Origin: Nanobdellota archaeon | Lineage (GTDB): Archaea; Nanobdellota; Nanobdellia; Nanobdellales; Nanobdellaceae | Direction of reading: 5' to 3' | NCBI GenBank assembly: GCA_042850255.1 | Contig: AP031373.1 | Span: 690,001-722,000 of the forward strand | DNA length: 32,000 nt | Shown here: positions 10,067 through 28,601 of the stretch, piece by piece | Layout of the letters: every line of letters starts with the position of its first letter | How positions within the stretch are numbered: position 1 is the first letter of the stretch | Translations under genes and position numbers: made by a program | The notes under the pieces: model-generated | What the model was told of the DNA's origin: nothing | The model's input: only the letters and a program-made list of their open reading frames with translations | The model's database searches: none

Positions 10067-10151
10067 AATTTATTTATTTTATAAAAGATATAAAAATAAC
10101 TTATACGTTATCTTATATTTCTGTATTATCATTTGATATCTAAAGGAATTT

Positions 10152-11435
10152 TCAATAAACTATTTCTTGTACATCAGATTTAGAAAGAATATGTAGGTTA
10201 TTCGATTGATCTAGAAATACTACACTATCTCTGTTTTGCAATAAAAGTATTACGTTGTTATATGTAATGCTATCTTTTGTTCTTATATAGTATGCTCTAA
10301 AAGGAATTATTAATAACTTATCGTATAAAGTTACGATATCTAATATAATTTGAATTGATAAAAAGTCTAAAGAGAATTGAACTATGAAAGGTAGATTTAA
10401 ATAACTAGATACGAAAATTATAAATATAGGTAAAATGGCTAAAAAATTTCGAACATCATACGACATTTTATAAATCAAATAGAAATTTATAATTTTAGTA
10501 TTTATATAATTAATAAAAGTTTCTGCATTATTTATTTCTATATATCTTTTTAAAGAGATAGTAATTTTTTCAGCTATTATGCCAAATATAATAAGAATAA
10601 GTATCAAAATTATCAAAATTGATATAAAGATAATAGTTGAATATATTCTTATACTAATAATAAAAATAACAGTAATAGCAAATATAATAGTTAAAAAGTT
10701 AGAATTCATAAAAATATTTCTTAAATTCGTGATCCATCTATTAGATTCTGTTGTTAAGTGCATAAGATTTGAAAAAATTATAATTATAAAATCAGGATTT
10801 GTGTTTATAATTTTCTGCTTTGATAATATTCCTGTAAATACTAAAGAATTATAATAATTAGATATTATATTGCTATGAAAATTTAAGGCAATATTAAATA
10901 ATGTTCCTATTAGAAAAATAAAAATATAAAAAGTAAATATTGCTAACAGACTCAGCCATTTAAAAATAATAAACAAATACAGAAATACTATAAGAAGTAA
11001 AATGTTATTTATAAAAATGTTGTATGTAGAATGTTCTAATATCGAGAAAGGAGTTAGAATTTTTAAAATTTTATTATTTTCAGAATCTATTAGATTATTA
11101 TTATTTATAGAAGTGTGTATTAAATTATTTTTTGTTTTTATATAATCTAATAGATGATGTTTGTTGTATAAAGTATATACTTTATACCCATACCAAGCTA
11201 CTAATATGAATATAACTTTATTTTGAAAGATAAAATTATAAAAAGCATTGATTATTTTTCCTAAATTAAAAAAGATAGTGGAAGATAAAAATAAGTAAGA
11301 TAGAACAAATATTATAATAAGAAAAAGCACTATCATATTATAAAAAGTCAAAATTAGGAGATAAGTACTATAATCTATAAATAGAATATCTGGAACAATA
11401 TCTATATTTATACGTTTTCTTTGAGAACTAATCAT
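10152..11435 (-). CDS. large polytopic membrane protein (427 aa) with a short soluble C-terminal tail
   Basis: ATG ORF with many I/L/F-rich hydrophobic stretches. The antisense ORF 10579-10854 is a shadow. Confidence 0.6.
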   Translation of the reverse strand: MISSQRKRINIDIVPDILFIDYSTYLLILTFYNMIVLFLIIIFVLSYLFLSSTIFFNLGKIINAFYNFIFQNKVIFILVAWYGYKVYTLYNKHHLLDYIKTKNNLIHTSINNNNLIDSENNKILKILTPFSILEHSTYNIFINNILLLIVFLYLFIIFKWLSLLAIFTFYIFIFLIGTLFNIALNFHSNIISNYYNSLVFTGILSKQKIINTNPDFIIIIFSNLMHLTTESNRWITNLRNIFMNSNFLTIIFAITVIFIISIRIYSTIIFISILIILILILIIFGIIAEKITISLKRYIEINNAETFINYINTKIINFYLIYKMSYDVRNFLAILPIFIIFVSSYLNLPFIVQFSLDFLSIQIILDIVTLYDKLLIIPFRAYYIRTKDSITYNNVILLLQNRDSVVFLDQSNNLHILSKSDVQEIVY

Positions 11436-11460
11436 TTTTATAAATTGTTATATTATAAAC

Positions 11461-11466
11461 TTATAA
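11461..11466. promoter_or_regulatory. central TTATAA in a 55-nt divergent spacer (candidate shared TATA box)
   Basis: The hexamer lies 25-26 nt from both divergent ATGs (11435 on the - strand, 11491 on the + strand). Three further TTATAA hexamers occur in the same spacer, so the assignment is ambiguous. Confidence 0.3.
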
Positions 11467-11490
11467 ATTCTTTAAAAAATTTATAATTTT

Positions 11491-12018
11491 ATGAAAATCT
11501 TCAATCTTAGCTTTATTAATAAGAATAAAAAAGATAAGGAAAGATTAAATAAGTTAAGAGTACTTCTTTCTGCACTATATGATACAGGATATACTAAAAT
11601 TAGAAAAACATTATTTATGAAATTGATATTTTTAATAGATTATTATTTGGATGAAAAACTATCTAGGGAACCCAAAGTATTCGGTTATAATTTTTATATA
11701 TATAAGTATGGAGTTTTTACATCAAAAGTATTGATAGATCTGGAAAATCTAAATATATCCTATGAAAAAAACAAAGATGGAGTATATATAAAAATACCAG
11801 TTCCATCTTATGATGATAGAAAGTTAATAGAAGAGTACATAGAGCTGTACAATAAATTTAAAAAAATAATAGAAAAATATGTAAAACCATTTGAAGAAGA
11901 TCCAGATGGATTATCAAATTATATTCTAGAAAAATTATTAGGAGTACGTCCGGGACAGAAGATATTTTATTATTATACTAATGTAGAAGAACTTATTGAA
12001 GAAAATCATATCAGCTAA
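11491..12018 (+). CDS. Panacea / DUF4065 (SocA/GepA-like) domain protein, putative antitoxin-type protein
   Basis: 175 aa. IRKTLFMKLIFLIDYYLDEKLSREPKVFGYNFYIYKYGVFTSKVLIDL resembles the DUF4065 core (t.lKLqKLLYfa....l...g.plf...f.aw.yGPv...vy). Match is by eye only. Confidence 0.4.
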   Translation: MKIFNLSFINKNKKDKERLNKLRVLLSALYDTGYTKIRKTLFMKLIFLIDYYLDEKLSREPKVFGYNFYIYKYGVFTSKVLIDLENLNISYEKNKDGVYIKIPVPSYDDRKLIEEYIELYNKFKKIIEKYVKPFEEDPDGLSNYILEKLLGVRPGQKIFYYYTNVEELIEENHIS

Positions 12019-12967
12019 AAATTTCCTTAAGATATTCAACAAACTTCTTTTGATTCTCTTTTATATATTTTTCCATAATTTTCTTATCTAGTTTATTGTC
12101 ATACATTATATAAAATGGTAATACTATAGTTTTTGATTCTATTTGAACTCTACTAGTTAAATACTCAATATTATATTTTATAGTATTTAAAATTTTCTTA
12201 TAATCATCCTTACTAAGTTTATTTTTATTTTGTTTTATTTCTTCTTCTACATCTTTAATCTTCTTTATAACTAAACCATATACTCTTTTAGGGTTAAAAA
12301 AAGTTGGCAGAATATTTTCAAATAATCCTGAAAAATAAGATATTATGTCGTCAGTATTAGACTTAGAAATCCCTACTTGAATAACAAGAAACCAATAATC
12401 TGCTTTTAATTTTTCTATATCTTTTCTTCTTTTTAAAATTTTTAATATTTTCTTATCTAAATTACTTCCAGAGATTCCTGTAATTCTAGATAATTCTATA
12501 GCTACTCTTTTAGGAGGAGCATCAATAATAAAATCTGGTATTACTATTTTTCCTTTTATATTCTCTTTTGCTAGATATATCTTAATATCTTCTTCTTCAT
12601 AAATTTCTATATTCCCATTTGGAAAGAAATTTAAAAATTCTTTTATATTATAATTAATGTCTTTTTGAAAGAAGATAGTAGAAAATAATTTTCTATTTGC
12701 ATAATCATTAGAAAAATTTATGATTTTTTTAATTATATGTTTATGATCGGCATTAATTTTTTCTTCTACTTTTAGATTTTCCAGAATATCTTTAATAAGC
12801 TTGTTGATAGTATCTTCATATTTTTTTATTATTTCTTCTTCAGTACCCTTAGTTAAAATAGTAGCATGATAAATAGTAATTAAAGAGGTAATGTCTCTTT
12901 TCGACATTAATTCTAACAGTATTCTATCTAATATCTCTCTGTCACTATAACCATCATCACTAATCAT
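12011..12967 (-). CDS. hypothetical protein with a possible Uma2/PD-(D/E)xK nuclease-fold core (318 aa)
   Basis: IYEEEDIKIY...GKIVIPDFIIDAPPKRVAIELSRITG...KADYWFLVIQ fits the E...PD...(E)x(S/K)...YW pattern of Uma2 (DUF820)-type endonuclease folds. Its 3' end overlaps the convergent DUF4065-like gene by 8 nt. Confidence 0.35.
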   Translation of the reverse strand: MISDDGYSDREILDRILLELMSKRDITSLITIYHATILTKGTEEEIIKKYEDTINKLIKDILENLKVEEKINADHKHIIKKIINFSNDYANRKLFSTIFFQKDINYNIKEFLNFFPNGNIEIYEEEDIKIYLAKENIKGKIVIPDFIIDAPPKRVAIELSRITGISGSNLDKKILKILKRRKDIEKLKADYWFLVIQVGISKSNTDDIISYFSGLFENILPTFFNPKRVYGLVIKKIKDVEEEIKQNKNKLSKDDYKKILNTIKYNIEYLTSRVQIESKTIVLPFYIMYDNKLDKKIMEKYIKENQKKFVEYLKEIFS

Positions 12968-13052
12968 ATCCTTAGAGAAATCAATTTCATATTTATATTT
13001 TTTGGCATTACCTAGATGTTTATTATAACATTACTAGTAGTTACATAATTGT

Positions 13053-13151
13053 AAAAATATTTAGATATTTTTAATAAAGATTAAGTATGCCCGATACATT
13101 TGAAAAATTTACATCTTTGAGATATATTGGAATGAGGAGTATATTTTATAT
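13053..13151 (+). repeat. copy 2 of the 99-bp duplicated promoter + 5' coding segment (partner at 8045-8143)
   Basis: See copy 1. The two copies are colinear with no gaps, about 90% identical by hand count. Confidence 0.8.
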
Positions 13152-13609
13152 AATCTATTATTCTTTTAGTCTCATCGATAGGTCCTTATGGTATATTTTT
13201 ACTAGTTTTTGGAAATATAAACTACATAAATTCATATTTAAGTAACGAAAATATACTATCTAATATTTTTACTATATTAAGCAAAAATTTAACTTTTGTA
13301 AATTTATATATTGATTTATTAGGAAATATATTGTTAAATTTCTTTCTTATACTATATATATCTTTTATAATACCTTTCTATATTGCAAACCACAAAAATT
13401 TTGACAAAAAACTTGTCAACAAGCTCGATTTACTTATGATTATATTGTTGATTATTATAGTTATTCTAATTTATAATTATTTTAATTTTTATATAATTTT
13501 TGGTATTGTATGTTCAATTATTATCTTTTTTATTCTTATATATAAATATGGACACCAGGCATTCGAAAACGAGAAATTTAGATTATGTATATTTAAATAT
13601 ATATTATAG
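13087..13609 (+). pseudogene. frameshifted, shorter paralog of the membrane protein at 8079-8909
   Basis: The ATG at 13087 gives MPDTFEKFTSLRYIGMRSIFYII..., which then drifts to a stop at 13243-13245. Similarity to the paralog (IISIGAYYD versus VSSIGPYGI) resumes in the +1 frame, which is open from 13154 and contains the track ORF 13331-13609 (TTG start). The frame switch lies between about 13155 and 13169. Confidence 0.55.
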
Positions 13610-13611
13610 TT

Positions 13612-14327
13612 TTATTTAAAGGTATTATATTCTTCATCAATATCTTTCTTTATATCTTCCGGTAATTTATTATATTCTTTCAATATTTCTTTTTTAATAT
13701 CTTTTGGTAAACCTACATAGAAATTTCTAAAAATCATCATAAATCCATACATTTTAAGATAATCAATTTTTAATGATTTATTTTCTTCCAAAATAGATTT
13801 ATACAAAAATCTATAATAATCTGCTAAATCTTTGATAACAAATGATATTATATCATATGAAGAATTTTTATTCCTAATTTTATTATTATTAAAATTTTTT
13901 GCAAATTTTTCTTCAAGATACGTTTTTATTTCTGGATTAATATTATCAAATATTAAGTATAAAGCATAAGCTTTTCTTCTACAATCATTAGCTACATATA
14001 AGGCATCTGTTAGATCTAAAATTTTAATATTGAGTCCTTGTTCATATGAATATAAAATGCCAAGTTGTATAATCGTGGTAGAAAACATATTCATAGATAA
14101 TAAATTTTGTATACTGATTGGTCCTTCATATATATTTTGATATAAATTTTTTATTTCATAAAAATAATTTTTATTTTTTCATCATTTATAATTTTCTCTA
14201 ATTCTGATAAATTAGATTTTAATCTTTTTGAATCTGATTTCTTCAAATCTAATAATGTTTCATTAAGTTTTCTATCTATTTCATACCAAAATTTATTAAT
14301 ATCATCCTTATTATAGTTGTTACTCAT
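13612..14327 (-). pseudogene. family-B paralog B3, split by a frameshift (fragments 14151-14327 and 13612-14178)
   Basis: A 58-aa ORF from the ATG at 14327 (MSNNYNKDDINKFWYEIDRKL...SELEKIINDEKIKIIFMK*) overlaps the upstream-open frame of ORF 13612-14094. The joined length of about 235 aa equals that of B1 and B2. Family motifs: ANDCRRKAYALYLIF (compare IDMARRSALSLYLVY and ADLIRRCSFLLEKTY) and IKTYLEE (compare AKTYLNN and YKEKLNN). The shift window 14151-14178 is made of A5/A5/T5 runs. Confidence 0.55.
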
Positions 14328-14397
14328 TAATAATTAATACGTAATATATTTTATAAACACTTATTTATATAAGTAAAATTAAAATAAATGAAGAATT

Positions 14398-14988
14398 TTA
14401 AGTTATATTTATTATTTTTTCTACATAGCTTTTAACATTATTATTTCTTTTAGGGAATATTATTGCTGTAGGATAAAATTCTTTTTCATTAATTATCTCT
14501 GAATCTATATAATTATTTTTATATGTTAAAATTCCAAAAATTGGTCTATAACTTTTCGGCAATAAATAATAAAAACCTATAGTTTTTAATAAAAGATTAT
14601 TTAATTCATCATAGTTTTCTTTTATCCCATTACCTTTATTATCTACTTTAAATAAAATATAATTATCTAAATTATCTATATTTTTATTTTTAGAGATTAA
14701 ATAAAATATTTTTAATTCTAAATTATTATAATTTCCTATAAGAACTCCATATAATTGATAATCTTTAGTTTCCAATACCATTTCTTTTAAATTTATATAT
14801 CTTTTTCCATCCATTCTAAAGGAAGGAATTTTTATATAATCTGAAGGAACTTTTAGTTGTTTACTCTGATCATTAGAATAAATAATATAATAATTATTAA
14901 TAGAAGAAATATCTTTTTTCAATGATGATATTTTAAAAATTTTTGCTTCATATCTATTTCCTCCATAAAACGATTCATATACCTCCAT
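14398..14988 (-). CDS. hypothetical protein (196 aa)
   Basis: ATG ORF, co-directional member of the 13.6-23.7 kb cluster. No motif recognised. Confidence 0.55.
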   Translation of the reverse strand: MEVYESFYGGNRYEAKIFKISSLKKDISSINNYYIIYSNDQSKQLKVPSDYIKIPSFRMDGKRYINLKEMVLETKDYQLYGVLIGNYNNLELKIFYLISKNKNIDNLDNYILFKVDNKGNGIKENYDELNNLLLKTIGFYYLLPKSYRPIFGILTYKNNYIDSEIINEKEFYPTAIIFPKRNNNVKSYVEKIINIT

Positions 14989-15060
14989 AAAAATATAAAC
15001 ATTCTAAAATTATATATAACTTTCTTCAATTTACCATCTATCTTTAAATATTTTGAAAAC

Positions 15061-15939
15061 CTATATATATCTGTATACCATAAAATTATCGCTTTTATTT
15101 AGTATCTCCGTTACCTTTTCTTTTATTCTACTATATAGGTAAATTAGGGAGAAGGACAGATGATCAAATGATTCATATAGATTATTTAATATATTTTTCA
15201 TATCTTCTTTATTATAATGATTAAATAGACAATTTTTAATATATAAATTTTCAATTTTAAAATTATATTCTAACATACTATATTTTAATTTATCATATTC
15301 CTGATCATTATCTTCTAAATTATTATTGCTCGATTGATTACTATCTATAGAAAGAGCTACCTCAGAAAATATTAATCTAAAAGTAAATAACAGGTGATAT
15401 AAATTTTTATATGCATATTGGATTTTTATTATATAACCATTTTTATTATTATAATTATTATAACTAAGCAAAATTTCCTTATTATTTACTATTATTCTTA
15501 AATTATCTTCTATTATTTTTTTATAATTTTCTATTACTTTATCTCCCGAAAAATTATAGTCCAATAGTTTAAAATATATATAATCAAATATCATATTTTC
15601 AAATATTCCATTTAATTTATTTAAATGATTATAAAATTCCTCAATCTCTTTATCATCAATAAAATAGAATATATTTTGATTATTTATATATTTAGACAAA
15701 TATTCATTATATAAATAATTTATTGCTCCTCCAACAAGCTGTATATTTATTAAATAATCTAGTCTATCATTACATACTACATTTTTTAATTTTTGAATAT
15801 TTTTTACATATTCTTCTAAAGATTTTAAATTTATATTTAAATTATCTAAAAGATTTCTGAGAAATTGTGGATCTTCTTTTATACTTTTAGTTTGAAAGAA
15901 ATAATCTTGATAATCTGAGTAATTTTCGTTATTACTCAT
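15061..15939 (-). CDS. hypothetical helical protein (292 aa), possibly distantly related to family B
   Basis: ATG ORF. The C-terminal FDHLSFSLIYLYSRIKEK resembles the B2 segment EDALLYLFMVYSNIKNDK. This similarity is weak. Confidence 0.55.
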   Translation of the reverse strand: MSNNENYSDYQDYFFQTKSIKEDPQFLRNLLDNLNINLKSLEEYVKNIQKLKNVVCNDRLDYLINIQLVGGAINYLYNEYLSKYINNQNIFYFIDDKEIEEFYNHLNKLNGIFENMIFDYIYFKLLDYNFSGDKVIENYKKIIEDNLRIIVNNKEILLSYNNYNNKNGYIIKIQYAYKNLYHLLFTFRLIFSEVALSIDSNQSSNNNLEDNDQEYDKLKYSMLEYNFKIENLYIKNCLFNHYNKEDMKNILNNLYESFDHLSFSLIYLYSRIKEKVTEILNKSDNFMVYRYI

Positions 15940-15987
15940 CTATAACATATAGTAAAATAAAAGGTTTTAAATATTATAGAAGTTATG

Positions 15988-16665
15988 CTACAAATTTCTA
16001 GAAAAAATATCGTTTAGGTATTTCTTTCCTTTTCTATTTAGATATCCAATAACCAAGTATATAGCATCCTGACCAACTATATTTAAATTATTATCATCAA
16101 TTTTATAACTACTAGTATTGATAAAAATTACTGGGAATGAATTATATTTTTCTTTCTTTATTTCATTTGAAATATTTATAATTTCTTTAATATAATTTTC
16201 ATTTCCTCCAATAATATTTAAATATCCTAAATTTTTATTATAACCCAAATTGTCTTTTAATAATATTATTGGTTTATAGTTTTCTATTTTATTTTCTAAA
16301 TTGTATCTGGATATATCAGTATTTGGAATAATATATAAAATTGGTTTACTATTTTCTTTAACCATATACAAATTTTTTCCATGTTTCTCAGATATATTAT
16401 ATATTTTTCCTATATTATATAATATAGCGTCTAAATCTGTTGCTTCAGAAACATATATTAATTTATTTTTCCTCTTTTCTAAATATCCTCCTATTTTATC
16501 TATAAGATATGCAGTAGAAAGGATAATCGAATATAATATTGTTGTATATTCTAATGCTTTTAATGGATTTTTACCATTTTCTATATCTATATATGTAATC
16601 AAATATAATAATGCATATCCAGAAATTATTCCAGTAGCAACCGATAACTTTACTTTACTTACCAT
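15988..16665 (-). CDS. membrane-anchored protein (two N-terminal TM helices plus a soluble domain, 225 aa)
   Basis: Hydrophobic segments VATGIISGYALLYLITYI and ILYSIILSTAYLIDKIGG are followed by a polar domain. The antisense ORF 16301-16669 is a shadow. Confidence 0.6.
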   Translation of the reverse strand: MVSKVKLSVATGIISGYALLYLITYIDIENGKNPLKALEYTTILYSIILSTAYLIDKIGGYLEKRKNKLIYVSEATDLDAILYNIGKIYNISEKHGKNLYMVKENSKPILYIIPNTDISRYNLENKIENYKPIILLKDNLGYNKNLGYLNIIGGNENYIKEIINISNEIKKEKYNSFPVIFINTSSYKIDDNNLNIVGQDAIYLVIGYLNRKGKKYLNDIFSRNL

Positions 16666-16729
16666 ATAATAGTAGTAATAAAATAAATTTTAATAAAGTT
16701 TGTTAATTAAAAAATATCTAAATAAAAAA

Positions 16730-17143
16730 TTATTCTTTATCTAGTTTCCACAATAGTGCAGTTACTATTATCAATATTAATCCTAATGCAAAGTCTAATT
16801 CTATTAATGGTATGAAGAATGGCAATGGTACTCCTATCAATGGTGCAGGTCCTACTCTACTTTCTATTAATAATAAGAAGTTTATTACATAGAATATTAA
16901 TGTTGGTAGATACCAATTTCTCTTTCCTAACATATATACTACTACGCTAGCTGTTGCTAATGATGATATGAAACCAAAATATAATCTATATACTTCTGTT
17001 GCTAATGCATTATTTGGTACTGTAAATATTGATGATGCTACTATATGTATTCCCGTCCATAATGCTGCTGCTAATAAACCTATCCATCTCAATATTGTTA
17101 CTCCCATATTTTTGCTTGAATGAGTAGTACTTTCTTCTGCCAT
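16730..17143 (-). CDS. small 4-TM membrane protein, paralog of 25072-25506 (faint DoxX-like flavour)
   Basis: 137 aa. It shares these blocks with the paralog: LR(W/F)..L..AAL....H in TM1, G(K/L)R.WY.P, PLIG, and a C-terminal (W/L)K(L/Y)DK. Its G+C is higher than its neighbours. Confidence 0.7.
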   Translation of the reverse strand: MAEESTTHSSKNMGVTILRWIGLLAAALWTGIHIVASSIFTVPNNALATEVYRLYFGFISSLATASVVVYMLGKRNWYLPTLIFYVINFLLLIESRVGPAPLIGVPLPFFIPLIELDFALGLILIIVTALLWKLDKE

Positions 17144-17226
17144 ATAACTTTATTATAATTATAACTTAAAAATATAACTACTTTAGATTATTTACTACGA
17201 TATCGTAACTTATGAAATTTTTTAAA

Positions 17227-18195
17227 TCAAAATAGTCGCCAAATATTAGTAATAACTTCATAATAATCTGCTACTTTAAACTTTTTAGTTTCATTTATAT
17301 ATTCTAAATCTTCTTCTTTATCTTCATTATTAACATCATTAAATAGATCATTAGTATATCGATTGAATTCATCTACAGAATTTATTTTTTTGATTTCCTC
17401 TATCGAATTTTTTCCATATTCTTCATATAATAATTTTCCAAATATATTTCCAAAGATTAGAGATTTATAATAAATCATTTTATTTAAAATATTTACATAT
17501 TCATCCTTTTGTCTTTTTAATTCTAATATTTTATCAACTGGTAAATTTCTTATATTTTTAGATGAATTATAAGCTTCTATTATGTTTTTGCTATGGTTTA
17601 ATATTAACGAATTTAAATTATTAAGGTAAATTTTTGGTAATTGGGATATTTTAATGTTATATTCTTCCATTTTTCCATTTTTATATGTATTATAATAAAA
17701 TATAGCTGTAATTGCTTCAGATAATAGATTATTTAAGAACAATAAATCATCTATAAGGTCTCTTTTGTATATTTTTATATTTCTTGTATATGGAAATTTT
17801 TCATTCACAATATATTCAATAAATCTTCTTGAAATAGTCCATTCTAAAGGTTCATAAGTTATATTTTCTATTTTTCCATTTTTGTAATTTTTTATATTAT
17901 CCAAATATTTTATTGGATTATTTATTACTATAATAACTCTGTCATCTTTATATATAATATTTAATTTATTACTCTCATCATTAGAATACAATATCTGTAT
18001 ATGCTTATCTTCATTAAATTTCTCTTTAACTTTTTTAATTATTTCTCTACTCCTTTCTTCAGAATATTCTATAAATTTTATAAGTAATTCATTTATTTTT
18101 TCTTTATATAAATCTTTATATTGTTCATATTTATTATAATCATCCAATATACTATCTAATTCTCCTTTCTTATTAAATCTTATATTAAATACCAT
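17227..18195 (-). CDS. family-A paralog A4 (322 aa), unknown function
   Basis: It shares the architecture and motifs of A1-A3. DDRVIIVIN matches the strand motif (compare GNKIYIYLP, NNTLYLIPG, NNIIYIEE). FGKLLYEEYGKNSIEEIKK is close to A1 ISKKYYEKYGKNSINYIKN. Confidence 0.65.
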   Translation of the reverse strand: MVFNIRFNKKGELDSILDDYNKYEQYKDLYKEKINELLIKFIEYSEERSREIIKKVKEKFNEDKHIQILYSNDESNKLNIIYKDDRVIIVINNPIKYLDNIKNYKNGKIENITYEPLEWTISRRFIEYIVNEKFPYTRNIKIYKRDLIDDLLFLNNLLSEAITAIFYYNTYKNGKMEEYNIKISQLPKIYLNNLNSLILNHSKNIIEAYNSSKNIRNLPVDKILELKRQKDEYVNILNKMIYYKSLIFGNIFGKLLYEEYGKNSIEEIKKINSVDEFNRYTNDLFNDVNNEDKEEDLEYINETKKFKVADYYEVITNIWRLF

Positions 18196-18259
18196 AACTA
18201 AATATTATATTACATAGTTATATTTATATGTATAATCAAATAACAGTAGTAAATAATTT

Positions 18260-19162
18260 TTATTCATAAACTTTATCATATATAGGAAATATTAAATACT
18301 TTTTATCTCTGATTGAATTTATTATATTTTCATTATTTTTATTTACAATTTTTATTGTAGAATTGTCCAATTTTAATAATTTTTTATTATTTTCTTTTAT
18401 AGTATTCCAACCAAGTATATTAATTATTTCTGAATAATCTTCATTTTCTATTGTCTTTAAAATATCTAATATTTCTCTTATATAACGACTTTTATTATTG
18501 AGATAATATTCTGCAATAAGAATTCCAAAAAGTTCTGATTTCTTTTTTATTATATCTTTTAATATCCCTATTTTCCTTATTTCTTCTCTTTTATTTTTTA
18601 TTAATTTATTTATCGTTTCACATAAATCTTTATAAAAATGATCATATGATTTGCTGCATGAATCATTCCTTTTATTTAGATAATTTTTATATTCATTTAA
18701 AATATAACTTTTTTCAATTTCGTTGGATAAAAGATAAGATATCTTATTCTTTATATTATTTACTTTAATATTATTTTTAGATAAAAATATATATGAAAGA
18801 AAAGAAATTAAAAAATACTTAATAGATATATAATCATTGAATAAGTTATCCTCTTGAACTATTTCATCTTTTAAATTTAAATTATCTAATAAAAATTCTA
18901 TGTATCCTTTTATAGAATTCCATATTATTATATTTTCTTCTTTATCATTTATTAAAGAGTCTATATAATCTTTATTTCCAGGTATTAAATATAATGTATT
19001 ATTACATAATACATAAGATAATTCTTCTCCAGTAATTATTTCTATACCACTTATTTCTATATTTTTTATTTCTTTGTTTATATCTTTTATAATTGTATTT
19101 AGATATTTTTTAATTTCATCTTTTTCATTATTTAATATATTATCCAAATTCTTGTCATACAT
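18260..19162 (-). CDS. family-A paralog A3 (300 aa), unknown function
   Basis: The N-terminus LDNILNNEKDEIKKYLN matches A2 LDNIIKEGAKKYIEKSL. ELSYVLCNNTLYLIPGNKDYI matches A2 EIAYELEGNKIYIYLPKDYF. The C-terminus IKIVNKNNENIINSIRDKKYLIF matches A2 IVIFSIKNENIENAIIKALEEKNLVL. Confidence 0.65.
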   Translation of the reverse strand: MYDKNLDNILNNEKDEIKKYLNTIIKDINKEIKNIEISGIEIITGEELSYVLCNNTLYLIPGNKDYIDSLINDKEENIIIWNSIKGYIEFLLDNLNLKDEIVQEDNLFNDYISIKYFLISFLSYIFLSKNNIKVNNIKNKISYLLSNEIEKSYILNEYKNYLNKRNDSCSKSYDHFYKDLCETINKLIKNKREEIRKIGILKDIIKKKSELFGILIAEYYLNNKSRYIREILDILKTIENEDYSEIINILGWNTIKENNKKLLKLDNSTIKIVNKNNENIINSIRDKKYLIFPIYDKVYE

Positions 19163-19192
19163 ACTAATATTTAATAAAAAAGTTTTACAATT

Positions 19193-19879
19193 TTATTTAA
19201 AATATTTACTTTTTGCTTCTTTATACTTCTCTTCAAATTCTTTTTTATATTCATCTTTAAGATTGTTAAAAGACGAACATAGAGAAATAACATATTTAAC
19301 CATTTTATCATTTTTAATGTTTGAATAAACCATAAATAAATATAATAAGGCATCTTCAGGATTGTCTAAAACTTTTAGACTTAAATTATTACCTACTTTA
19401 AGACATTCTTTTATATTAAAATTGGCTTTTTCTAATGTAGTACTATATAAATTATTTAAATATGTTTTTGCTTCTTCAGATAAATTTTTGTAAGTTTTTT
19501 CTAATAAAAAAGAGCATCTTCTAATCAAATCCGCTATTTTTATGAATTCGTTAAGATCCATTAAATTTGTTTTTTCATCTACACTAGCTAATTTGTTTAA
19601 AATAGAAACTATCGATAAATATCTAAGCATTTCTAATGAGTCTCCTAAATTTGTAAAATTATTTGTTTCATATTTATTTTTTAGTTCTTTTAATTCCATT
19701 CTTACATCATCCCTTTTTAAATACTCTAGAAGTTTTTTCGAATATTCTTTTACTTTATTTGGATCCGCATAACTTTGTGAGTAATAAGGTGAAGTTATTT
19801 TATTTAATAATGAATCTATATTATCTAAAACATCCATTTCTTCTTTATTTTCTTTTTTAAATATTTTTCTTATATCCAT
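19193..19879 (-). CDS. family-B paralog B2 (228 aa), unknown function
   Basis: It aligns by eye with B1: LEMLRYLSIV versus IEFLRYRILS; ADLIRRCS versus IDMARRSA; YLNNLYSTTLE versus KLNNIYYNLLE; and the C-terminal EYKKEFEEKYKEAK versus SYKKYIDEIYKYVKK. Confidence 0.65.
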   Translation of the reverse strand: MDIRKIFKKENKEEMDVLDNIDSLLNKITSPYYSQSYADPNKVKEYSKKLLEYLKRDDVRMELKELKNKYETNNFTNLGDSLEMLRYLSIVSILNKLASVDEKTNLMDLNEFIKIADLIRRCSFLLEKTYKNLSEEAKTYLNNLYSTTLEKANFNIKECLKVGNNLSLKVLDNPEDALLYLFMVYSNIKNDKMVKYVISLCSSFNNLKDEYKKEFEEKYKEAKSKYFK

Positions 19880-19947
19880 AAAAATAAAATTGTAAAAATA
19901 TTTATAAATATTTACTTAATAGATACTACCTGTATATAACTATAAAA

Positions 19948-21072
19948 TTAAAAAATCTGGTGTAAATATTTCGTACCATGGTCTGGTAGTATTACGATAA
20001 CATTTCCACTTATTTTCCCTTCATTATATAATTTCTCTACTGCAGATAATACTGCACCTGAACTAATACCAGGAAATATACCTGTACTTCTAGCAACCTT
20101 CATTATAGACTCCAATGCTTCTTCATATGTTATATCAATTATTTCGTCAAATTCCCCATATTTTACCCATTTCATTCCTGTTTCTATTCTTCTAATTCCT
20201 GGTATATGAGAACCTTTTGCAGGTTGTACTCCATAAGATCTTATATTATATCTAGATTTAAGATAAAACGATACTGCAGATGCATGACCTGAAGTACCCA
20301 AAGATCCTACAAATGCATCAGGTTTTATATTTGCTTTTCTTAATTGATAATCTATTTCCTTACCAGTTAATATATGCATCCTGAAATTTGCATCATTTTC
20401 AAATTGATTTAATACTATTGCATTATCCCTTCTAGCATCTTCGTATAATTCTCCCAAACTTTCTACAGTAGTATTATATTTAGTAACTTTAACTCCAGAT
20501 CCATATATAACTAAAAATAATTTCACTATTTCTTCTGGTATATTTTTTGTTAAATATATTACTGTCTTATAATTAAAATGTCTAGACATACTTACTAATG
20601 CAATACCTGTATTAGTAGATGTAGCTTCATATAATAACTTTTTATTACCATCTAGGATACCTCTCTCTTTTGCATCTTTTAACAATCCTAATGCTGTTCT
20701 ATCCTTTACACTTAAACTAAATGGATGATACCATTCTAATTTTGCATATATATTCAAACCTGGTATATAATCTAATTTTACTAATGGAGTTACAATATCT
20801 TTTTCTAATAGTTCTAATGGATTATTATATACTTTCGGACCTGATAATTTTTCTTCTATATCTCTATATGGATCTAAATTATCTAATGATATTCTTTCAT
20901 TATTATTATCCCCTATAGGTACATACTTTAATCCCAATGTTTTTAATGCATTATAGATATCCAAATTTTCTATTTTATTGTCCCTTATTACTATTGGCTC
21001 TGTAGACCAGGTTCTTATTATATCCCTTAACTTTACTATATATTTATCTATAGGTAGTAGTTCTCCTTTCAA
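19948..21072 (-). CDS. PLP-dependent O-phosphoserine sulfhydrylase / cysteine synthase of the crenarchaeal long type (about 90-aa N-terminal extension)
   Basis: It has the Schiff-base lysine motif LEWYHPFSLSVKDR, plus GSLGTSGHASAVSFYLKS and VQPAKGSHIPGIRRIETGM. From memory, these blocks closely match the Aeropyrum pernix OPSS-type enzyme. The only in-frame start is the TTG at 21072, so the start is uncertain. Confidence 0.85.
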   Translation of the reverse strand: MKGELLPIDKYIVKLRDIIRTWSTEPIVIRDNKIENLDIYNALKTLGLKYVPIGDNNNERISLDNLDPYRDIEEKLSGPKVYNNPLELLEKDIVTPLVKLDYIPGLNIYAKLEWYHPFSLSVKDRTALGLLKDAKERGILDGNKKLLYEATSTNTGIALVSMSRHFNYKTVIYLTKNIPEEIVKLFLVIYGSGVKVTKYNTTVESLGELYEDARRDNAIVLNQFENDANFRMHILTGKEIDYQLRKANIKPDAFVGSLGTSGHASAVSFYLKSRYNIRSYGVQPAKGSHIPGIRRIETGMKWVKYGEFDEIIDITYEEALESIMKVARSTGIFPGISSGAVLSAVEKLYNEGKISGNVIVILPDHGTKYLHQIF

Positions 21073-21139
21073 AGAATCGATTGGTACTGCACCGACTATC
21101 CATTGTTTTTAGTATTATTATCAAAATTTTTAATTTTTA

Positions 21140-21835
21140 TTAGGATTTATAGTAATTTTCTATATTTTTAAATACTAATTTTTTAACATATTTATATATT
21201 TCATCTATATATTTTTTGTATGATTCTGAGAGTCTATCATAAATTTTAGATAAAGTTTTTGCATAGCTAGAAATTCTTTGATCATTTTTATATATCATAT
21301 ATATTAATTCTGCGGTTTCTTTTATACTTCTTGGTATCGAAAGATTATTAGAACTAACATTTTCATCTTTTATATCAAGATTTTCTAATAAATTATAATA
21401 TATGTTATTTAATTTTTCTTTATATTCATTACCAATATAATAATATACTAAATACAAAGATAAAGCAGATCTTCTAGCCATATCTATTAAACTTGTATTT
21501 TTAATCCATTCTTCTAAATCACCTGATCCGTCTTCAGAAGCTCTCAATATATCCATTAAATCAGAAAGAATTCTATATCTTAAAAATTCTATTATTTCTT
21601 CTAAAGAAATAGGTTCGTTTTTTAATTTACTATTATTTTTAGCGAATATATCGAAAAAGCCTGTTTTTTTATTCTTTTTTCTCATATTAAAAATTTTTCT
21701 ATACATATATACAAAATTTTGATCTGTTCTTTTTTCTTTATCATGAAATATCTCTGTTACATAATTTAAAATAAAATCTAATTCTGAGTATTCGTATCCC
21801 AAATCTTTTAAACTTTTTGCCTTTTTTAGATCCAT
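21140..21835 (-). CDS. family-B paralog B1 (231 aa from ATG 21835), unknown function
   Basis: The track ORF begins at a TTG (21850). The ATG five codons downstream gives MDLKKAKS..., parallel to the B2 start MDIRKIFK. That ATG lies 1 nt after the A2 stop (21837-21839), which implies translational coupling. Confidence 0.65.
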   Translation of the reverse strand: MDLKKAKSLKDLGYEYSELDFILNYVTEIFHDKEKRTDQNFVYMYRKIFNMRKKNKKTGFFDIFAKNNSKLKNEPISLEEIIEFLRYRILSDLMDILRASEDGSGDLEEWIKNTSLIDMARRSALSLYLVYYYIGNEYKEKLNNIYYNLLENLDIKDENVSSNNLSIPRSIKETAELIYMIYKNDQRISSYAKTLSKIYDRLSESYKKYIDEIYKYVKKLVFKNIENYYKS

Positions 21836-21836
21836 A

Positions 21837-22820
21837 TTATATACAATCAATTAATCTTTTTGAAAATACATCTCTTGCCAAATCATATATATTATAGTTA
21901 GATTGAACAGCTAATACTAGATTCTTTTCTTCTAATGCTTTTATTATAGCATTTTCTATATTTTCATTTTTAATAGAAAATATAACAATATCTCCCTTTA
22001 TATAATCTTTTCTTTTTTCTACTGTGGGTTTCAGTTTATAGTATTTTATTATATCTATACTTTCTTCTCCCATATCTTTATATAAATATATACCAGCCAA
22101 AATTCCATAAACATTTGAAATATACTCTACCATTTTATCTATAACCTTATTATTTGAAAAAGATTCTAACTTTTTTTTAATTTCATCTTTATCTAAATTA
22201 TTTTTACTTTTTTTAATGTTTTCTATATATATTTTATATTCATTAATATCCGTTTCATTCTCTTTATATAAGTCTTCAAATTTTGATAAATATAAATATG
22301 TCCTATACACTAATCCAAACCTATGATATTGAATATCTTCTTCTTCATCTAGATAATTATATAAATAAAATATAGATGTGATTAATTGTCTTAAAAATAC
22401 GTCATTAAAAATATAATCTCCAATTATTATTCTATAATTTGCTACAGGAAATGTATCTTTTAAAGCATAATGTAAATATGCATCTAAAATTATAAATGGT
22501 AATGCATCTTCATCTCTTTTATTTATTTCCGAGTTTTTAATAAGTTTTTTGGTATATTTTTTATTTATAATTCCTTTAGTTTCTTTTAAAATAGATGGAA
22601 AATAATCTTTAGGTAGGTAAATATATATTTTATTACCTTCTAATTCATAAGCAATTTCATTTCCATCACGTTCATTTTCATAAGGATTATTTACTATATT
22701 TTCATAATCTTCAGTATGTAACTTTTCTTTTATACTCTTTATAATATAATTCGCAATTACTAAAGATTTTTCTATATATTTTTTAGCCCCTTCTTTAATA
22801 ATATTATCTAAATCATTCAT
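21837..22820 (-). CDS. family-A paralog A2 (327 aa), unknown function
   Basis: See A3 and A4. Its ATG overlaps the A1 stop (ATGA at 22817-22820). It contains LDAYLHYALKD at the position where a peptidase-like HExxH would sit, but that motif is not intact. Confidence 0.65.
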   Translation of the reverse strand: MNDLDNIIKEGAKKYIEKSLVIANYIIKSIKEKLHTEDYENIVNNPYENERDGNEIAYELEGNKIYIYLPKDYFPSILKETKGIINKKYTKKLIKNSEINKRDEDALPFIILDAYLHYALKDTFPVANYRIIIGDYIFNDVFLRQLITSIFYLYNYLDEEEDIQYHRFGLVYRTYLYLSKFEDLYKENETDINEYKIYIENIKKSKNNLDKDEIKKKLESFSNNKVIDKMVEYISNVYGILAGIYLYKDMGEESIDIIKYYKLKPTVEKRKDYIKGDIVIFSIKNENIENAIIKALEEKNLVLAVQSNYNIYDLARDVFSKRLIDCI

Positions 22821-23668
22821 CTTATATATTTTTGAATATCTCCTATAAGTTTAACCAGTCTATTATCTAATCTATAATTATTCATTTCTTTTATTGTATT
22901 ATCTTCCTTAATATTTTTCAATATACTATCTTCAATTATCTTATCTAATCCTATATATTCTTTATCTTCATTAGCCCATATGTTATTTTTAATATAATTT
23001 ATACTATTTTTTCCATATTTTTCATAATATTTTTTTGAAATAACTAAAGATAAAAGTTCTGTTTTAGTTTCTAAAAAATAATATATAGAATCTGATATAA
23101 TATTTTCGTTAAAATTATTTATATGATTTTTTATAGTCTCTAAATATTTATATTTTTCTTTAATTTTATCTAAAAGATAATTTACTTCTGAATTATAATC
23201 TTTATAATAATTACTTAGTATATTTAATAATGTGAATGTAAGAACTTTAGACCATAAATCCTTACTTAAAATATAATCACCTATACTATCCTCAAAGTAT
23301 ACTTTATTTTTCTTAAATAAATTCGATATCATTGGAGAAATCAAGGACATATATTTAATTACTATTATATAATGTAAAGGTCTATAATATTTTATATTAG
23401 GGTCATCTAAATTATCAGTCCTGTAATAATAATATTCAAAATTTTTACATTCTAATTCCTCTATATATATTATATTATTATTTTTACTATTGTATAATTG
23501 AATTATTTCATGATTATTACATGGATTAAATATTTTTATCCTCCCTATTATATCGTTTAATTTACTTTTTATACCCAAAATTTTATTTATTTTTCTAATC
23601 AATCCTTCAGAAATATCTAAAGACGCAAGTATATAAGAATCTGAAGGTTCTATAACCTCTTTATCCAT
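22817..23668 (-). CDS. family-A paralog A1 (283 aa), unknown function
   Basis: First gene of the A1-A2-B1 overlapping trio. It shares the E(K/E)YGKNSI(N/E)(Y/E)IK motif with A4. Confidence 0.65.
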   Translation of the reverse strand: MDKEVIEPSDSYILASLDISEGLIRKINKILGIKSKLNDIIGRIKIFNPCNNHEIIQLYNSKNNNIIYIEELECKNFEYYYYRTDNLDDPNIKYYRPLHYIIVIKYMSLISPMISNLFKKNKVYFEDSIGDYILSKDLWSKVLTFTLLNILSNYYKDYNSEVNYLLDKIKEKYKYLETIKNHINNFNENIISDSIYYFLETKTELLSLVISKKYYEKYGKNSINYIKNNIWANEDKEYIGLDKIIEDSILKNIKEDNTIKEMNNYRLDNRLVKLIGDIQKYIR

Positions 23669-23798: not shown

Positions 23799-24635
23799 AT
23801 GCTATCAAACAATCTTATAAAATTCTTATCGAATAATGAAGGGACATTGAATATTATAAAAAATGCTCCAGAATCTGATGAAGAATTTAGAAAAATAATA
23901 AAAGAAATAATAATAAAAGAATCTAAGATTTTAAAGAATATTATACTGGGAAAAGATATTATAAATTCCATGAAAGCAGGATACAAAAATGCAATTTTAG
24001 GATATTTACATTCTGCTGAAGAAAATAATAGATTTATAATAGAAAGAGCTTCTTTAATTGTATTTATTAAGAATACAACAAAGAAATATTATAAAGCATT
24101 AAAGAATATGGATTGGCATAAGTTAGTTGATGATAGTTTTATAATAAGATCTGGAGGAGAAGCTTTTGGAAAAATAAGAAAGTATATAGATATTAAAGAA
24201 ATAAATAAATATACAATATATTTAGCTGGAAATCCAGTATGCGAAAAACATTTAAAATGGAAAGAATATTCAATATCTATTAATAAATTGTATAAAAAAT
24301 TTGAATTTAAAAGGGAAATAAAATGTAAGTATTGTAATAAAAAAGCAAAATATTTTACTTTATGTATGCCAAAGGCGAGTGCTTTAATATATTTAGCATG
24401 TAAAATTGTAAATAAGAATCCTAATAATTTATTAAAAATATATTCTAATATTTCTAGAATACTACATCCTTATGGATTTACAGATTTAAATGAAGATATT
24501 GTATTTTCAATATGGGCTAGAGATTTATTATTAATAATTATTGAAATAAATAATTTATTATTTCCAGATAAATATAATGAGAAAATTTATCCAATAGATC
24601 TAGTAAAAAATTATAAAAATATTTTAAAAAGTTAA
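23799..24635 (+). CDS. hypothetical protein (278 aa) with a possible CxxH...CxxC zinc-binding element
   Basis: ATG ORF containing PVCEKH...(about 27 aa)...CKYCNKKAKYFTLC. Its 3' end overlaps the convergent DsrE-like gene by 12 nt. Confidence 0.55.
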   Translation: MLSNNLIKFLSNNEGTLNIIKNAPESDEEFRKIIKEIIIKESKILKNIILGKDIINSMKAGYKNAILGYLHSAEENNRFIIERASLIVFIKNTTKKYYKALKNMDWHKLVDDSFIIRSGGEAFGKIRKYIDIKEINKYTIYLAGNPVCEKHLKWKEYSISINKLYKKFEFKREIKCKYCNKKAKYFTLCMPKASALIYLACKIVNKNPNNLLKIYSNISRILHPYGFTDLNEDIVFSIWARDLLLIIIEINNLLFPDKYNEKIYPIDLVKNYKNILKS

Positions 24636-24965
24636 AATTGTATAACCTCTATCTGCATGTTCTAATATTATTTCTGCTCCTTTAGATATTTCATCTACGT
24701 ATACTAAATCTTCTTTACTTATATTATAATTTTTCATTGCAGTTTCACATGCAAATACTTTTACTCCCAATTTATTTAAATTATCTTTTGCATTTAATAT
24801 TAAATTTGATAACTGATTATTTTTTGTTAAAACTCTAATTCCTGGTCCTAAAAATACTATTTTAACATCTTCTGCTCCCAGATTTTTTAATGCTTGTGAT
24901 ACATTCAATCCTGTTCCTACATTTAAAGAATCTTCAGATTTTATTACAACTAAGAACTTTGCCAT
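24624..24965 (-). CDS. DsrE/DsrF-like family small protein (113 aa)
   Basis: Typical layout: MAKFLVVIKS (beta1) ... ALKNLGAEDVKIVFLGPGIRVL ... LGVKVFACETAMKNYNI (conserved Cys) ... GYTILTF. Confidence 0.6.
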   Translation of the reverse strand: MAKFLVVIKSEDSLNVGTGLNVSQALKNLGAEDVKIVFLGPGIRVLTKNNQLSNLILNAKDNLNKLGVKVFACETAMKNYNISKEDLVYVDEISKGAEIILEHADRGYTILTF

Positions 24966-25071: not shown

Positions 25072-25506
25072 TTAGCTTTCCATTAATAATTCATTTATTT
25101 TAGATCCTTTATCATATTTTAATGCTATAGCCCCAAATATTATTAAATAAATCCAACAAATTACAGATCCTGCTCTTCCAAATGAATATTGAGAAAATTC
25201 TAAATGTCCTATTAAAGGTTGAGAAGTTACTCCAGGAATTGCAATTATTCCTGATATAAAAAATAATACAATATTAATTATTGAATATATCCATGCAGGC
25301 CAATACCACATTCTTAATCCAAAAATATATATTATTGCTACAAATGTATATAATGCAATTTCTGTATCTAAATACATAGTTGCAACTGGTGTTGCAGCAG
25401 GAATTGCATATAAATGTGCAGCTATTTCAAATAGAGCAGCAAATGCTAAAGAAAACCTTAGGAATTTAATTAAAGAATATGGACCAGTTCTAATATTTAT
25501 CTTCAT
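25072..25506 (-). CDS. small 4-TM membrane protein, paralog of 16730-17143
   Basis: 144 aa, with the shared motifs listed under 16730-17143. It lies directly upstream of, and co-directional with, the DsrE-like gene. Confidence 0.7.
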   Translation of the reverse strand: MKINIRTGPYSLIKFLRFSLAFAALFEIAAHLYAIPAATPVATMYLDTEIALYTFVAIIYIFGLRMWYWPAWIYSIINIVLFFISGIIAIPGVTSQPLIGHLEFSQYSFGRAGSVICWIYLIIFGAIALKYDKGSKINELLMES

Positions 25507-25558: not shown

Positions 25559-26098
25559 ATGAAAAGGGAAATAATTTATATAGGAGAAAATAAAGTTTCT
25601 TTAAAACAATACATCTTTATTTTATTTTTAATAGCTTTATTAGGAACTTTTATATATTACATATTATCACAATTTTTACCAAATTTGATAGGTATTTTAA
25701 TATGTTCTATAGTAGTTGCAATAAATTTAGTTTATTTAAATAGATATTATATTAAAAAAGGATTAGTAATACCAACATTTAGAAAAAGAATAAATATAAA
25801 TAATATATTTGTCTTAGGTGATAAAAATAGTCCTATAGATCAGGAAGTAATAAATAAAAATGAAGAAATAATAAAAAATTTAGATCAAAACTCTAAGGAA
25901 TATAAAAGAAGATTAATATTATTGAGTTTGATGTATTTACAAAATTCAATAGTATATAATAATAAGGAATATTATGATAAAGCTAAAGAATATTTAGAAA
26001 AAATAGATAATTTTGAAGATTTAGATAACGATACAAAAAATTTATTTAATGCACTTAAAAATAAGATAGAAGAATATAAAAATTTATTTTATAATTAA
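25559..26098 (+). CDS. membrane-anchored hypothetical protein (two N-terminal TM helices, helical C-terminal domain, 179 aa)
   Basis: ATG ORF. Hydrophobic segments IFILFLIALLGTFIYYIL and LIGILICSIVVAINLVYL are present. Confidence 0.55.
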   Translation: MKREIIYIGENKVSLKQYIFILFLIALLGTFIYYILSQFLPNLIGILICSIVVAINLVYLNRYYIKKGLVIPTFRKRININNIFVLGDKNSPIDQEVINKNEEIIKNLDQNSKEYKRRLILLSLMYLQNSIVYNNKEYYDKAKEYLEKIDNFEDLDNDTKNLFNALKNKIEEYKNLFYN

Positions 26099-26733
26099 AT
26101 ATTATTTAAATCAATAAAATCAGCCAATATATCTTCTTGTAAATCTAATAATAAATATTCTTTAACATTTTTTAATCCTTTATAATATAGAGTTCTCCTA
26201 TCTCTTATATTTAAATCTGCAAAATCTCTAAATATTAATGCAGGAATATATTTATCTTCAAATATTCTTAAAGAGATAAATCTTGTAATTCTTTTTTTAG
26301 TAGAATCAATTAACCACCATTTATTTCCATCATATACTAAATTTACTACATGATCTGACATTAAACTTTCATTAGGTTGAAATACATTTTTTATATCTAT
26401 TGTACCCAATAGTGCTACAGGAAAATCTAATTTTCTCAATATTGCAGCAGTTAATAACGCAAATTCGGAACATGCTCCTCTAATCTTTTTATCTTCCATT
26501 TCTTTTACAGAATATATATGCTCTACAGGTACATTATTTAATGGTCTAAAATAGTTAGAAATTATTTTAAATGGTGCTCTTAATTTTTCTCTTAATGGTT
26601 TATCTTTATATTCTTCTATAGCTTTTGCAATAATTTTATCTTCGTATGGTTCACTAAATTCTCCAAATGTTTTAAAGAAATCTATGTTATTTAATAAAAA
26701 TTTATATTGTTCTATAAAATCTTCTGGATACAT
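26095..26733 (-). CDS. transglutaminase-like cysteine protease-fold protein
   Basis: Cys-His-Asp triad context: RGACSEFALLTAAILRKLDFP ... SDHVVNLVY ... KWWLIDST. Confidence 0.65.
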   Translation of the reverse strand: MYPEDFIEQYKFLLNNIDFFKTFGEFSEPYEDKIIAKAIEEYKDKPLREKLRAPFKIISNYFRPLNNVPVEHIYSVKEMEDKKIRGACSEFALLTAAILRKLDFPVALLGTIDIKNVFQPNESLMSDHVVNLVYDGNKWWLIDSTKKRITRFISLRIFEDKYIPALIFRDFADLNIRDRRTLYYKGLKNVKEYLLLDLQEDILADFIDLNNI

Positions 26734-26881: not shown

Positions 26882-27463
26882 TTATTCCTTTAAAAACTTT
26901 ATTATTTCTTCATTAAATTTCTTAGGATCATCTAAATAACATACATGATTATTACCTACATATACTAATTTTGCAGTTTTTACATTATTTAATATTAATT
27001 CTGCATTACTTATTGGAGATATATTATCATTTTTACCCCATATTAATAATATTTTCTTTCCATCCAATACTTTTAATTTTTCTTTATATTTTTCTACTCC
27101 TACAGGTCCTACCAATATTAATCCTTCTACAAAATCTGGATTATTTACTGCAAACCCTAAAACTGCTTCTCCACCCATTGATGCACCTAGATAATATGCT
27201 TTATCAACATTATATGTTAATACTAGATCTTTTATAAATTCTGATAAATTATAATAATTTCCCCTTTCAGATTTTCCGAATCCTGGAAAATCTACCGAAA
27301 CTACTTTAAATCCTGAATTTACTAAAGAATCTATTGTATTTGTACTTAACCAGGTTTCTGCATTAAATCTTGCTCCATGAAATAAAAATATATATTTTCC
27401 TTCTCCTTTTTCAATAACTCTTATTTTTGTTCTATTTACATTAATATATTTTTCATCTTCCAT
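26882..27463 (-). CDS. alpha/beta-fold hydrolase (193 aa)
   Basis: It has the oxyanion HG (FLFHGARF), the nucleophile elbow GASMGG (GxSxG), an acidic residue in GKNDNI, and a C-terminal His in GNNHVCYLDDP. Confidence 0.8.
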   Translation of the reverse strand: MEDEKYINVNRTKIRVIEKGEGKYIFLFHGARFNAETWLSTNTIDSLVNSGFKVVSVDFPGFGKSERGNYYNLSEFIKDLVLTYNVDKAYYLGASMGGEAVLGFAVNNPDFVEGLILVGPVGVEKYKEKLKVLDGKKILLIWGKNDNISPISNAELILNNVKTAKLVYVGNNHVCYLDDPKKFNEEIIKFLKE

Positions 27464-28258: not shown

Positions 28259-28601
28259 TTTTCATTTTTATTTTAAATCTACCAAAATTTCATCGATCAC
28301 TTTTGCTGTATATGTTTTAATATAAAATATAGATTTAAGTAATAGTTTATGTTTAAATAAAATTAGAAATATCAAATTCAAGATTAAAATGAAAAGGACT
28401 AGAGATTTTACAGTACCAAAATTAAATAAAATAGAATGCAAATTAAAAGAAATAGGAAAAGATATAATGTATTATATGATAATTAATGAAAGAAATGAAA
28501 GATTATTTAGAGCATATGTTTTATATTGAATTTTTATATTCTAATTTAAAATAAGATATAAATTTATTTAGATTTTTAAAAATAACTAAAGATTTATTAT
28601 T

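Follow-up and report, generated by a model that had tools for sequence, protein, structure and literature searches.

Evidence for two locally duplicated orphan gene families in the ectosymbiotic archaeon YN1

The 32-kb stretch of DNA analysed here (the window) belongs to the 773-kb genome of Nanobdellota archaeon YN1 and contains a minus-strand gene cluster (locus tags YN1_7980 to YN1_8100) that encodes two sets of mutually similar proteins, designated family A (A1 to A4) and family B (B1 to B3). These sets very probably represent real orphan gene families that were duplicated locally and are restricted to YN1, with all seven genes lying within 10 kb of one another. The reading favoured overall, tentatively and with slightly less than even confidence, is that of two locally duplicated accessory families whose products act together. 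YN1 is an obligate ectosymbiont that grows only on Sulfurisphaera ohwakuensis; its genome comprises 889 protein-coding sequences (CDS) at a guanine-plus-cytosine (GC) content of 23.4%, and even Nanobdella aerobiophila, the closest relative in culture, is just 86.5% identical to it in 16S sequence (PMC11420986). Neither the genome paper nor its supplement mentions the A and B genes (PMC11420986).

Similarity within families A and B

Because 47–61% of the residues in the cluster proteins are Lys, Asn, Ile, Tyr or Glu, raw similarity is an unreliable guide to relatedness, and pairwise comparisons were calibrated by shuffling. All 78 pairs among 13 window proteins were aligned by the Smith–Waterman algorithm, with 200 composition-preserving shuffles per pair. 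The eight highest-ranking pairs are all within-family, a class that makes up 9 of the 78, and by our own arithmetic such a ranking would arise by chance with a probability of ~4e-10. Similarity above chance within each set, seen by this approach as well as by BLASTP, hhalign and hidden Markov models (HMMs), upholds the proposal in the original prediction that A and B are paralogue families. The two are also separate from one another, as had been proposed, with an hhalign probability of 2.5% for A against B.

In family B, shuffle p values are 2e-7 for B1–B2, 2e-3 for B2–B3 and 3e-3 for B1–B3 (B3 entered as B3c), and BLASTP run with composition correction aligns B1 and B2 over 139 amino acids (aa) at E 6e-7. 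Leave-one-out HMMs retrieve B1, B2 and B3c each as the top match (E 5e-8 to 3e-5). The members are united by this pairwise similarity together with the RR[SCK][AS] motif, found in all three as first described, and the C-terminal motif [YI]KKx[IF][DE]ExY.

Family A shows similarity above composition-matched chance that is colinear over most of the protein length. Its strongest link is A2–A4 (shuffle p 8e-6; BLASTP E 1e-7 over 178 aa), followed by A2–A3 (4e-4), the pair by which A3 is counted in the family, and then by A1–A3 (0.013), A3–A4 (0.019) and A1–A4 (0.021). The A1–A2 pair taken alone is non-significant (p 0.11), and leave-one-out HMMs retrieve A2 and A4 and miss A1 and A3. A1 is included as a weak member on the strength of its comparison with an A2/A3/A4 profile, for which hhalign gives a P of 3.5e-4 across 141 columns in colinear order; control proteins comparable in size and composition give 0.063 (32 columns) and 0.48. 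In addition, A1 and A4 have in common a YGKNSI block (44% identity over 39 aa) that is paralleled by a 51-nucleotide (nt) DNA repeat (D4).

The motifs first used to define the families are present, but not in every member. The LDNI/KKY segment occurs in A2, A3 and A4 and is missing from A1; the YGKNSI-type ending occurs in A1, A2 and A4 and is missing from A3; and LRY is limited to B1 and B2. No further members emerged when all 56 open reading frames (ORFs) of the window were searched with the A and B HMMs. Two candidates for family A were considered and ruled out by hhalign, namely the 292-aa protein as a fifth member (P 0.48) and a 318-aa protein encoded downstream (P 0.063, 32 columns).

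B3 and the coding status of the families

B3 was originally described as frameshifted, and the lesion can be placed precisely: a 1-nt shift in a run of six adenines (A6, 14174–14179) splits the gene into ORFs of 58 and 160 aa. Addition of one A to this run yields an intact 238-aa B3, whose alignments with B1 and with B2 run from end to end (p ~0.0015 each). A separately assembled Logan contig, DRR287338_231, is 100% identical to the window over positions 6211–14910, the A6 run included, indicating that the frameshift is not peculiar to the published assembly, with the proviso that the Logan reads (DRR287338) may derive from the same culture. The tail of B3 additionally contains a 45-nt tandem duplication (D9, 13623–13710) encoding 15 residues, LPKDIKKEILKEYNK / LPEDIKKDIDEEYNT, so that the C-terminal family B motif is present twice. 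The simplest reading of this sequence is that B3 is a decaying copy, and the frameshift and tail duplication are both signs of ongoing turnover.

Such decay is one of the observations that would be expected if the paralogues were duplicates without function, on their way to being lost from a region where selection is relaxed, as would be the extreme divergence among copies and the lack of homologues kept elsewhere. This explanation is nevertheless very unlikely. Six ORFs of 228–327 codons are intact in DNA of ~20% GC, where by our own arithmetic about one in ten random codons would be a stop; the cluster genes display the same codon signature as conserved genes of the window (GC1 > GC2 > GC3, with a purine-rich first position); and useless DNA would presumably have been removed from so strongly reduced a genome (889 CDS; PMC11420986). 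The normal codon signature and the improbability of frames of this length at ~20% GC both argue that A and B are real coding genes.

Arrangement of the A and B genes

The twelve consecutive minus-strand genes of the original description were all recovered in the same places and order (Table 1), and the same strand carries a thirteenth, beyond them, at 12011–12967. Outside the cysteine synthase gene, the GC content of the cluster is 16.5–21%. The tight packing reported for the first triplet is likewise confirmed, in that A1 and A2 have 4 nt (ATGA) in common and the A2 stop lies 1 nt from the B1 ATG, as expected of a unit with coupled translation. The remaining gaps measure 30–83 nt and are AT-rich with TATA-like strings; the shortest separates B2 from A3. 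Apart from A2 and B1, most genes have an AT-rich spacer of 48–83 nt in front of them, which leaves room for individual promoters, so that one operon spanning the whole set of twelve is unsupported. From the spacing, visible coupling would be limited to A1-A2-B1 and perhaps also B2-A3.

Table 1. Genes of the YN1 cluster, listed in the direction of transcription (positions within the window).
Gene	Position	Strand	Length and remarks
A1	22817..23668	-	283 aa; YN1_8100; most diverged member of family A
A2	21837..22820	-	327 aa; YN1_8090; family A; ATGA overlap with A1
B1	21140..21835	-	231 aa from ATG; YN1_8080; family B
Cysteine synthase, O-phosphoserine sulfhydrylase-type	19948..21072	-	374 aa
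B2	19193..19879	-	228 aa; YN1_8060; family B
A3	18260..19162	-	300 aa; YN1_8050; family A
A4	17227..18195	-	322 aa; family A
Four-transmembrane membrane protein	16730..17143	-	137 aa; four hydrophobic segments
Membrane-anchored orphan	15988..16665	-	225 aa; N-terminal hydrophobic segment(s)
Soluble orphan	15061..15939	-	292 aa; outside family A
Orphan	14398..14988	-	196 aa; zero Cys, zero His
B3, frameshifted family B gene	13612..14327	-	58-aa + 160-aa ORFs (160-aa ORF is YN1_7980)

An exact 17-mer, AATTGTAAAAATATTTA, occurs at 13047–13063, upstream of the gene for the 318-aa protein, and at 19888–19904, upstream of B2, with a two-mismatch copy at 24609–24625 near the start of a DsrE gene; four matches are found, against 0.9 expected. 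The copies might serve as a promoter element common to several genes, or they might be repeats that bracket portions of the cluster.

The pattern of similarities suggests how the array may have formed. The strongest links, A2–A4 and B1–B2, and the fact that the best partner of A1 is A3, are consistent with an A-A(-B) block that was duplicated and later rearranged and interrupted by insertion. Given just four sequences without an outgroup, sequential single-gene duplications are a possible alternative history. By either route, A and B would have arisen and expanded in place through local gene duplication, leaving a current stock of four intact genes in family A and of two intact genes and one decaying copy in family B.

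The original prediction went further and envisaged a dedicated multi-subunit system, whether structural, regulatory or defensive, built of fixed 2A:1B modules together with the adjacent membrane proteins. Two triplets of A-A-B type (A1-A2-B1 and B2-A3-A4), the first of them tightly spaced, do lie on one strand along with the rest of the cluster, and two membrane proteins directly follow A4. A fixed 2:1 stoichiometry nonetheless finds no backing in the gene content, which in the one genome concerned amounts to four A genes and three B genes, with one B broken and isolated; the gene order differs between the two triplets, and neither protein nor metagenome searches returned an A or B homologue from a second genome. 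Nor was any link found between the membrane proteins and an A/B system. Located 8 kb upstream of the gene for the four-transmembrane (4-TM) protein, at 25072–25506, is a paralogue (31.6% identity over 76 aa; BLASTP E 2e-5) that lies outside the cluster and directly adjoins a gene of the DsrE/DsrF family (24624–24965; Pfam 9e-13), and this placement argues for a sulfur-related rather than an A/B-related context. Together with the single weak match to a defence protein described below, which is not shared by B1, these observations make a dedicated multi-subunit system improbable.

Predicted properties of A and B

The reported lack of catalytic signatures in the A and B proteins holds for HExxH, Walker A, CxxC and Rx4-6H alike. 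All four A proteins, with 1–3 His each, are devoid of the zincin motif HExxH and of its inverted form HxxEH, and the aligned A helix has no conserved His or Glu. Walker A (GxxxxGK[ST]) is not matched in A or B even in a loose form, and the HEPN motif Rx4-6H is not matched in family B, in which B2 and B3 have no histidine at all. Across both families each protein contains 0–3 His and 0–3 Cys, the alignments show no conspicuous polar column, and transmembrane segments and signal peptides were looked for and not found. Both families are mostly helical in low-confidence AlphaFold2 models, in which A may open with helices at its N terminus, pass into a beta-hairpin and continue as about ten helices, and B may be all-helical. 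From these features we infer that both families comprise soluble proteins with a binding or scaffold role rather than an enzymatic one.

Searches for relatives of A and B

The description of A and B as lineage-specific is borne out by searches that returned YN1 proteins alone. Word-indexed searches of 5.8 billion proteins with A2 as a single sequence, with the A profile and with the B profile recovered YN1's own proteins only, and when the A profile was run by HMMER in full against 1.84 billion representatives, exactly the four A proteins came back. Matches of A, B and the other orphans to Pfam, NCBIfam, PADLOC and PHROGs reach noise level at most, and PDB sequence profiles yielded low-complexity noise only (the RPN8 tail and ScoE). 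A confident match to a characterised family, which would have spoken against the novelty of A and B, is thus absent from all five collections.

The sole match in PADLOC-DB 2.0 is that of B2 to AbiTi (E 0.0024, 16 bits); the other cluster proteins scanned gave none, B3 being unscanned. Lactococcal AbiT resembles B2 in being a small, low-GC, helical protein and belongs to a two-gene module. It differs in that the B2 match spans 67 residues, B1 has no match at E <= 0.1 and no AbiTii-like partner is present. The match is best explained by a common composition rich in Lys, Asn, Ile and Glu.

A and/or B might instead be extremely diverged members of a known family, masked by their skewed composition and by the scarcity of close sequences. 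The profiles hold only 3–4 sequences (effective number of sequences, Neff, ~2), the AlphaFold2 models are too poor for fold comparison, and YN1 is phylogenetically isolated, all of which would help to conceal such a relationship. The blank results from the family, defence, phage and structure profiles count against it, as does the lack of any conserved catalytic or metal-binding motif that might serve as a hint, and we regard it as unlikely.

A different origin, in which a virus, plasmid or other mobile element integrated here, with the cluster as its cargo or remnant and A and B among its genes, would fit the GC content of 16.5–21%, below the reported genome mean of 23.4% (PMC11420986), and the very high ORFan content between 7 and 24 kb. 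A foreign cysteine synthase gene inserted in the cluster, a small PD-(D/E)xK nuclease ORF nearby and the recurrence of the 17-mer at 13047, 19888 and, with two mismatches, 24609 point the same way, except that two genes start at promoter distance from the 17-mer, which may be a promoter element. Other expected marks of a mobile element are missing: in the window, Pfam and a tRNA scan revealed neither an integrase nor a tRNA target, nor any gene for a capsid or for replication, and there is no PHROG match. Family B has no relative in IMG/VR viral contigs or in metagenome contigs, the 292-aa, 225-aa and 196-aa proteins have none in IMG/VR viral contigs, and tblastn of B2 against phages and of A4 against plasmids gave no match. 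A mobile-element origin is therefore improbable as well.

Do A and B act together?

Three observations underlie the proposal that A and B cooperate: A1, A2 and B1 are packed for coupled translation, A3 begins 30 nt past B2, and the two families appear to have been duplicated together. Formation of A-B hetero-complexes would be the probable form of such cooperation within the favoured reading, and joint action of A and B in a complex is plausible, albeit with rather less than an even chance. Their role would be accessory and fast-evolving rather than core cellular, for example in strain-specific host interaction or in genetic conflict. A host-interaction or conflict role as such is unlikely on present evidence; a strain-specific accessory role is, as a guess, the most economical one.

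Lineage-specific expansions of orphan gene families are a general phenomenon in reduced, host-dependent genomes. A and B resemble such expansions in that tandem copies diverge fast within a single lineage, in an ORFan-rich variable region, with one copy becoming a pseudogene. They differ in having no secretion signal, repeat domain or surface feature hinting at an effector or adhesin, and in being known from one genome only. The families themselves are new; arrays of orphan paralogues, in a lineage that evolves fast and has been little sampled, are a familiar phenomenon.

Several points weigh against two cooperating, YN1-restricted accessory families. B3 has no adjacent A gene, and adjacency that follows segmental duplication is no proof of functional linkage. 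The absence of homologues holds at database-wide significance only, a threshold that relatives at paralogue-level divergence (~25–30% identity, 25–45 bits) could never pass, and undetected relatives of A and B in Nanobdella aerobiophila or other Nanobdellota are possible. AlphaFold2 models of A2 (predicted local distance difference test, pLDDT, 37.7 from a four-sequence alignment) and B1 (pLDDT 40.4 from a three-sequence alignment) are unusable for fold comparison. The inferred host-interaction or conflict role draws on lineage restriction and turnover and on nothing else; secretion signals are absent from the A and B proteins, and no defence-system or mobile-element marker linked to them was found in PADLOC, PHROGs, IMG/VR, phages or plasmids.

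Cone structures similar to those associated with attachment have been reported in related strains (10.64898/2026.06.04.730037). Since these structures recur across strains, their core parts should be conserved, and A and B are not, which makes the attachment organelle an unlikely home for them. A bolder variant of the favoured reading would have A and B adopt two new folds and form a YN1-specific hetero-oligomeric module acting toward S. ohwakuensis or toward YN1's own parasites. Such a module might consist of cytoplasmic cargo or adaptors delivered via the attachment organelle, or might constitute a new conflict system, and would have diversified in place under diversifying selection. This variant is quite improbable.

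The cysteine synthase and other cluster genes

The gene between B1 and B2 was identified in the original prediction as an O-phosphoserine sulfhydrylase-type (OPSS) cysteine synthase, an assignment in keeping with its best PDB match, Aeropyrum pernix CysO (1WKV, 1e-61). The protein contains a PALP domain (PF00291, 8e-43) and the Schiff-base lysine motif SVKDR at residue 121, and its residues 34–371 are colinear with residues 41–376 of 1WKV. CysM/CysK chains match only from residue 94 (~1e-29), Thermoproteota relatives align from residues 1–7, and scores fall under the NCBIfam cut-offs for CysK and CysM. By its sequence the protein is of the crenarchaeal CysO type with an N-terminal extension, as opposed to the ~300-aa CysK/CysM proteins, and its use of O-phosphoserine is putative. 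In full-length colinearity, N-terminal extension, PALP domain and SVKDR lysine it thus resembles A. pernix CysO, from which the YN1 case differs in that the gene is only 39–50% identical to its Thermoproteota relatives and in that the host genome is reported to be without amino-acid biosynthesis in general (PMC11420986).

It had been allowed that the cysteine synthase might be only a housekeeping neighbour of A and B, and it does appear to be a neighbour unrelated to them. Its closest relatives (Desulfurococcaceae, Thermofilaceae and Pyrodictium, at the identities just given) are Thermoproteota, as are all of the 80 best loci; none of the 80 has A or B genes nearby, and none is a nanoarchaeal or Nanobdellota relative. 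The gene has a GC content of 28%, compared with 17–21% in its neighbours. The higher GC, the Thermoproteota relatives and the lack of A and B at the 80 loci together argue that it is independent of the two families, and it was probably acquired horizontally from Thermoproteota.

Along with the DsrE gene and the 4-TM paralogues, the OPSS gene suggests a dispersed sulfur- or cysteine-related set interleaved with A and B. A DsrE-anchored metagenome scan found nothing. The 225-aa and 292-aa orphans have no family match in Pfam, NCBIfam, PADLOC or PHROGs. The OPSS gene and the 4-TM protein are regarded as neighbours rather than subunits, and the same probably applies to the other four cluster genes.

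Other features of the window

The window as a whole is very AT-rich (16.5–28% GC per kb), and about two-thirds of it is orphan coding sequence. Most of its other ORFs are likewise without a Pfam match, among them those of 178, 276, 220, 427, 175, 318, 279 and 367 aa at 7260–13000 and 28600–30540. Divergently oriented from A1 is a 278-aa orphan (23799–24635, plus strand) with five Cys, including a CxxC (CKYC), for which no family match was found and which may be a candidate zinc-ribbon regulator of the cluster.

Recognisable domains occur at either side of the cluster. A 500-aa protein (5540–7042, minus strand) gives ArsR/MarR/TrmB-type matches at three positions, indicative of several winged-helix DNA-binding domains. 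The 89-aa ORF at 9797–10066 (minus strand) is a PD-(D/E)xK nuclease domain, stand-alone or truncated; it is called Mrr_cat/NERD in the Logan gene call, with matches to PADLOC CARF_PDDEXK models (2e-7) in its C-terminal part. At 26095–26733 and 26882–27463 (minus strand), a transglutaminase-like protein scoring slightly under the Pfam cut-off adjoins a 193-aa alpha/beta-hydrolase. The match of this hydrolase to the fold models is confined to their N-terminal part, and it may be truncated.

Implications

A and B presently constitute a well-defined pair of new families, a candidate list rather than a demonstrated system. Their seven genes represent ~0.8% of the YN1 gene count and ~6 kb of DNA, kept despite a complement of only 889 protein-coding genes. 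YN1 is among the few DPANN archaea in stable co-culture, and its genes are consequently open to transcriptomics, proteomics and structural work. Orphans that are retained and amplified in a reduced genome are reasonable candidates for functions that set this symbiont apart from its relatives, for instance in host specificity or in conflicts with mobile elements.

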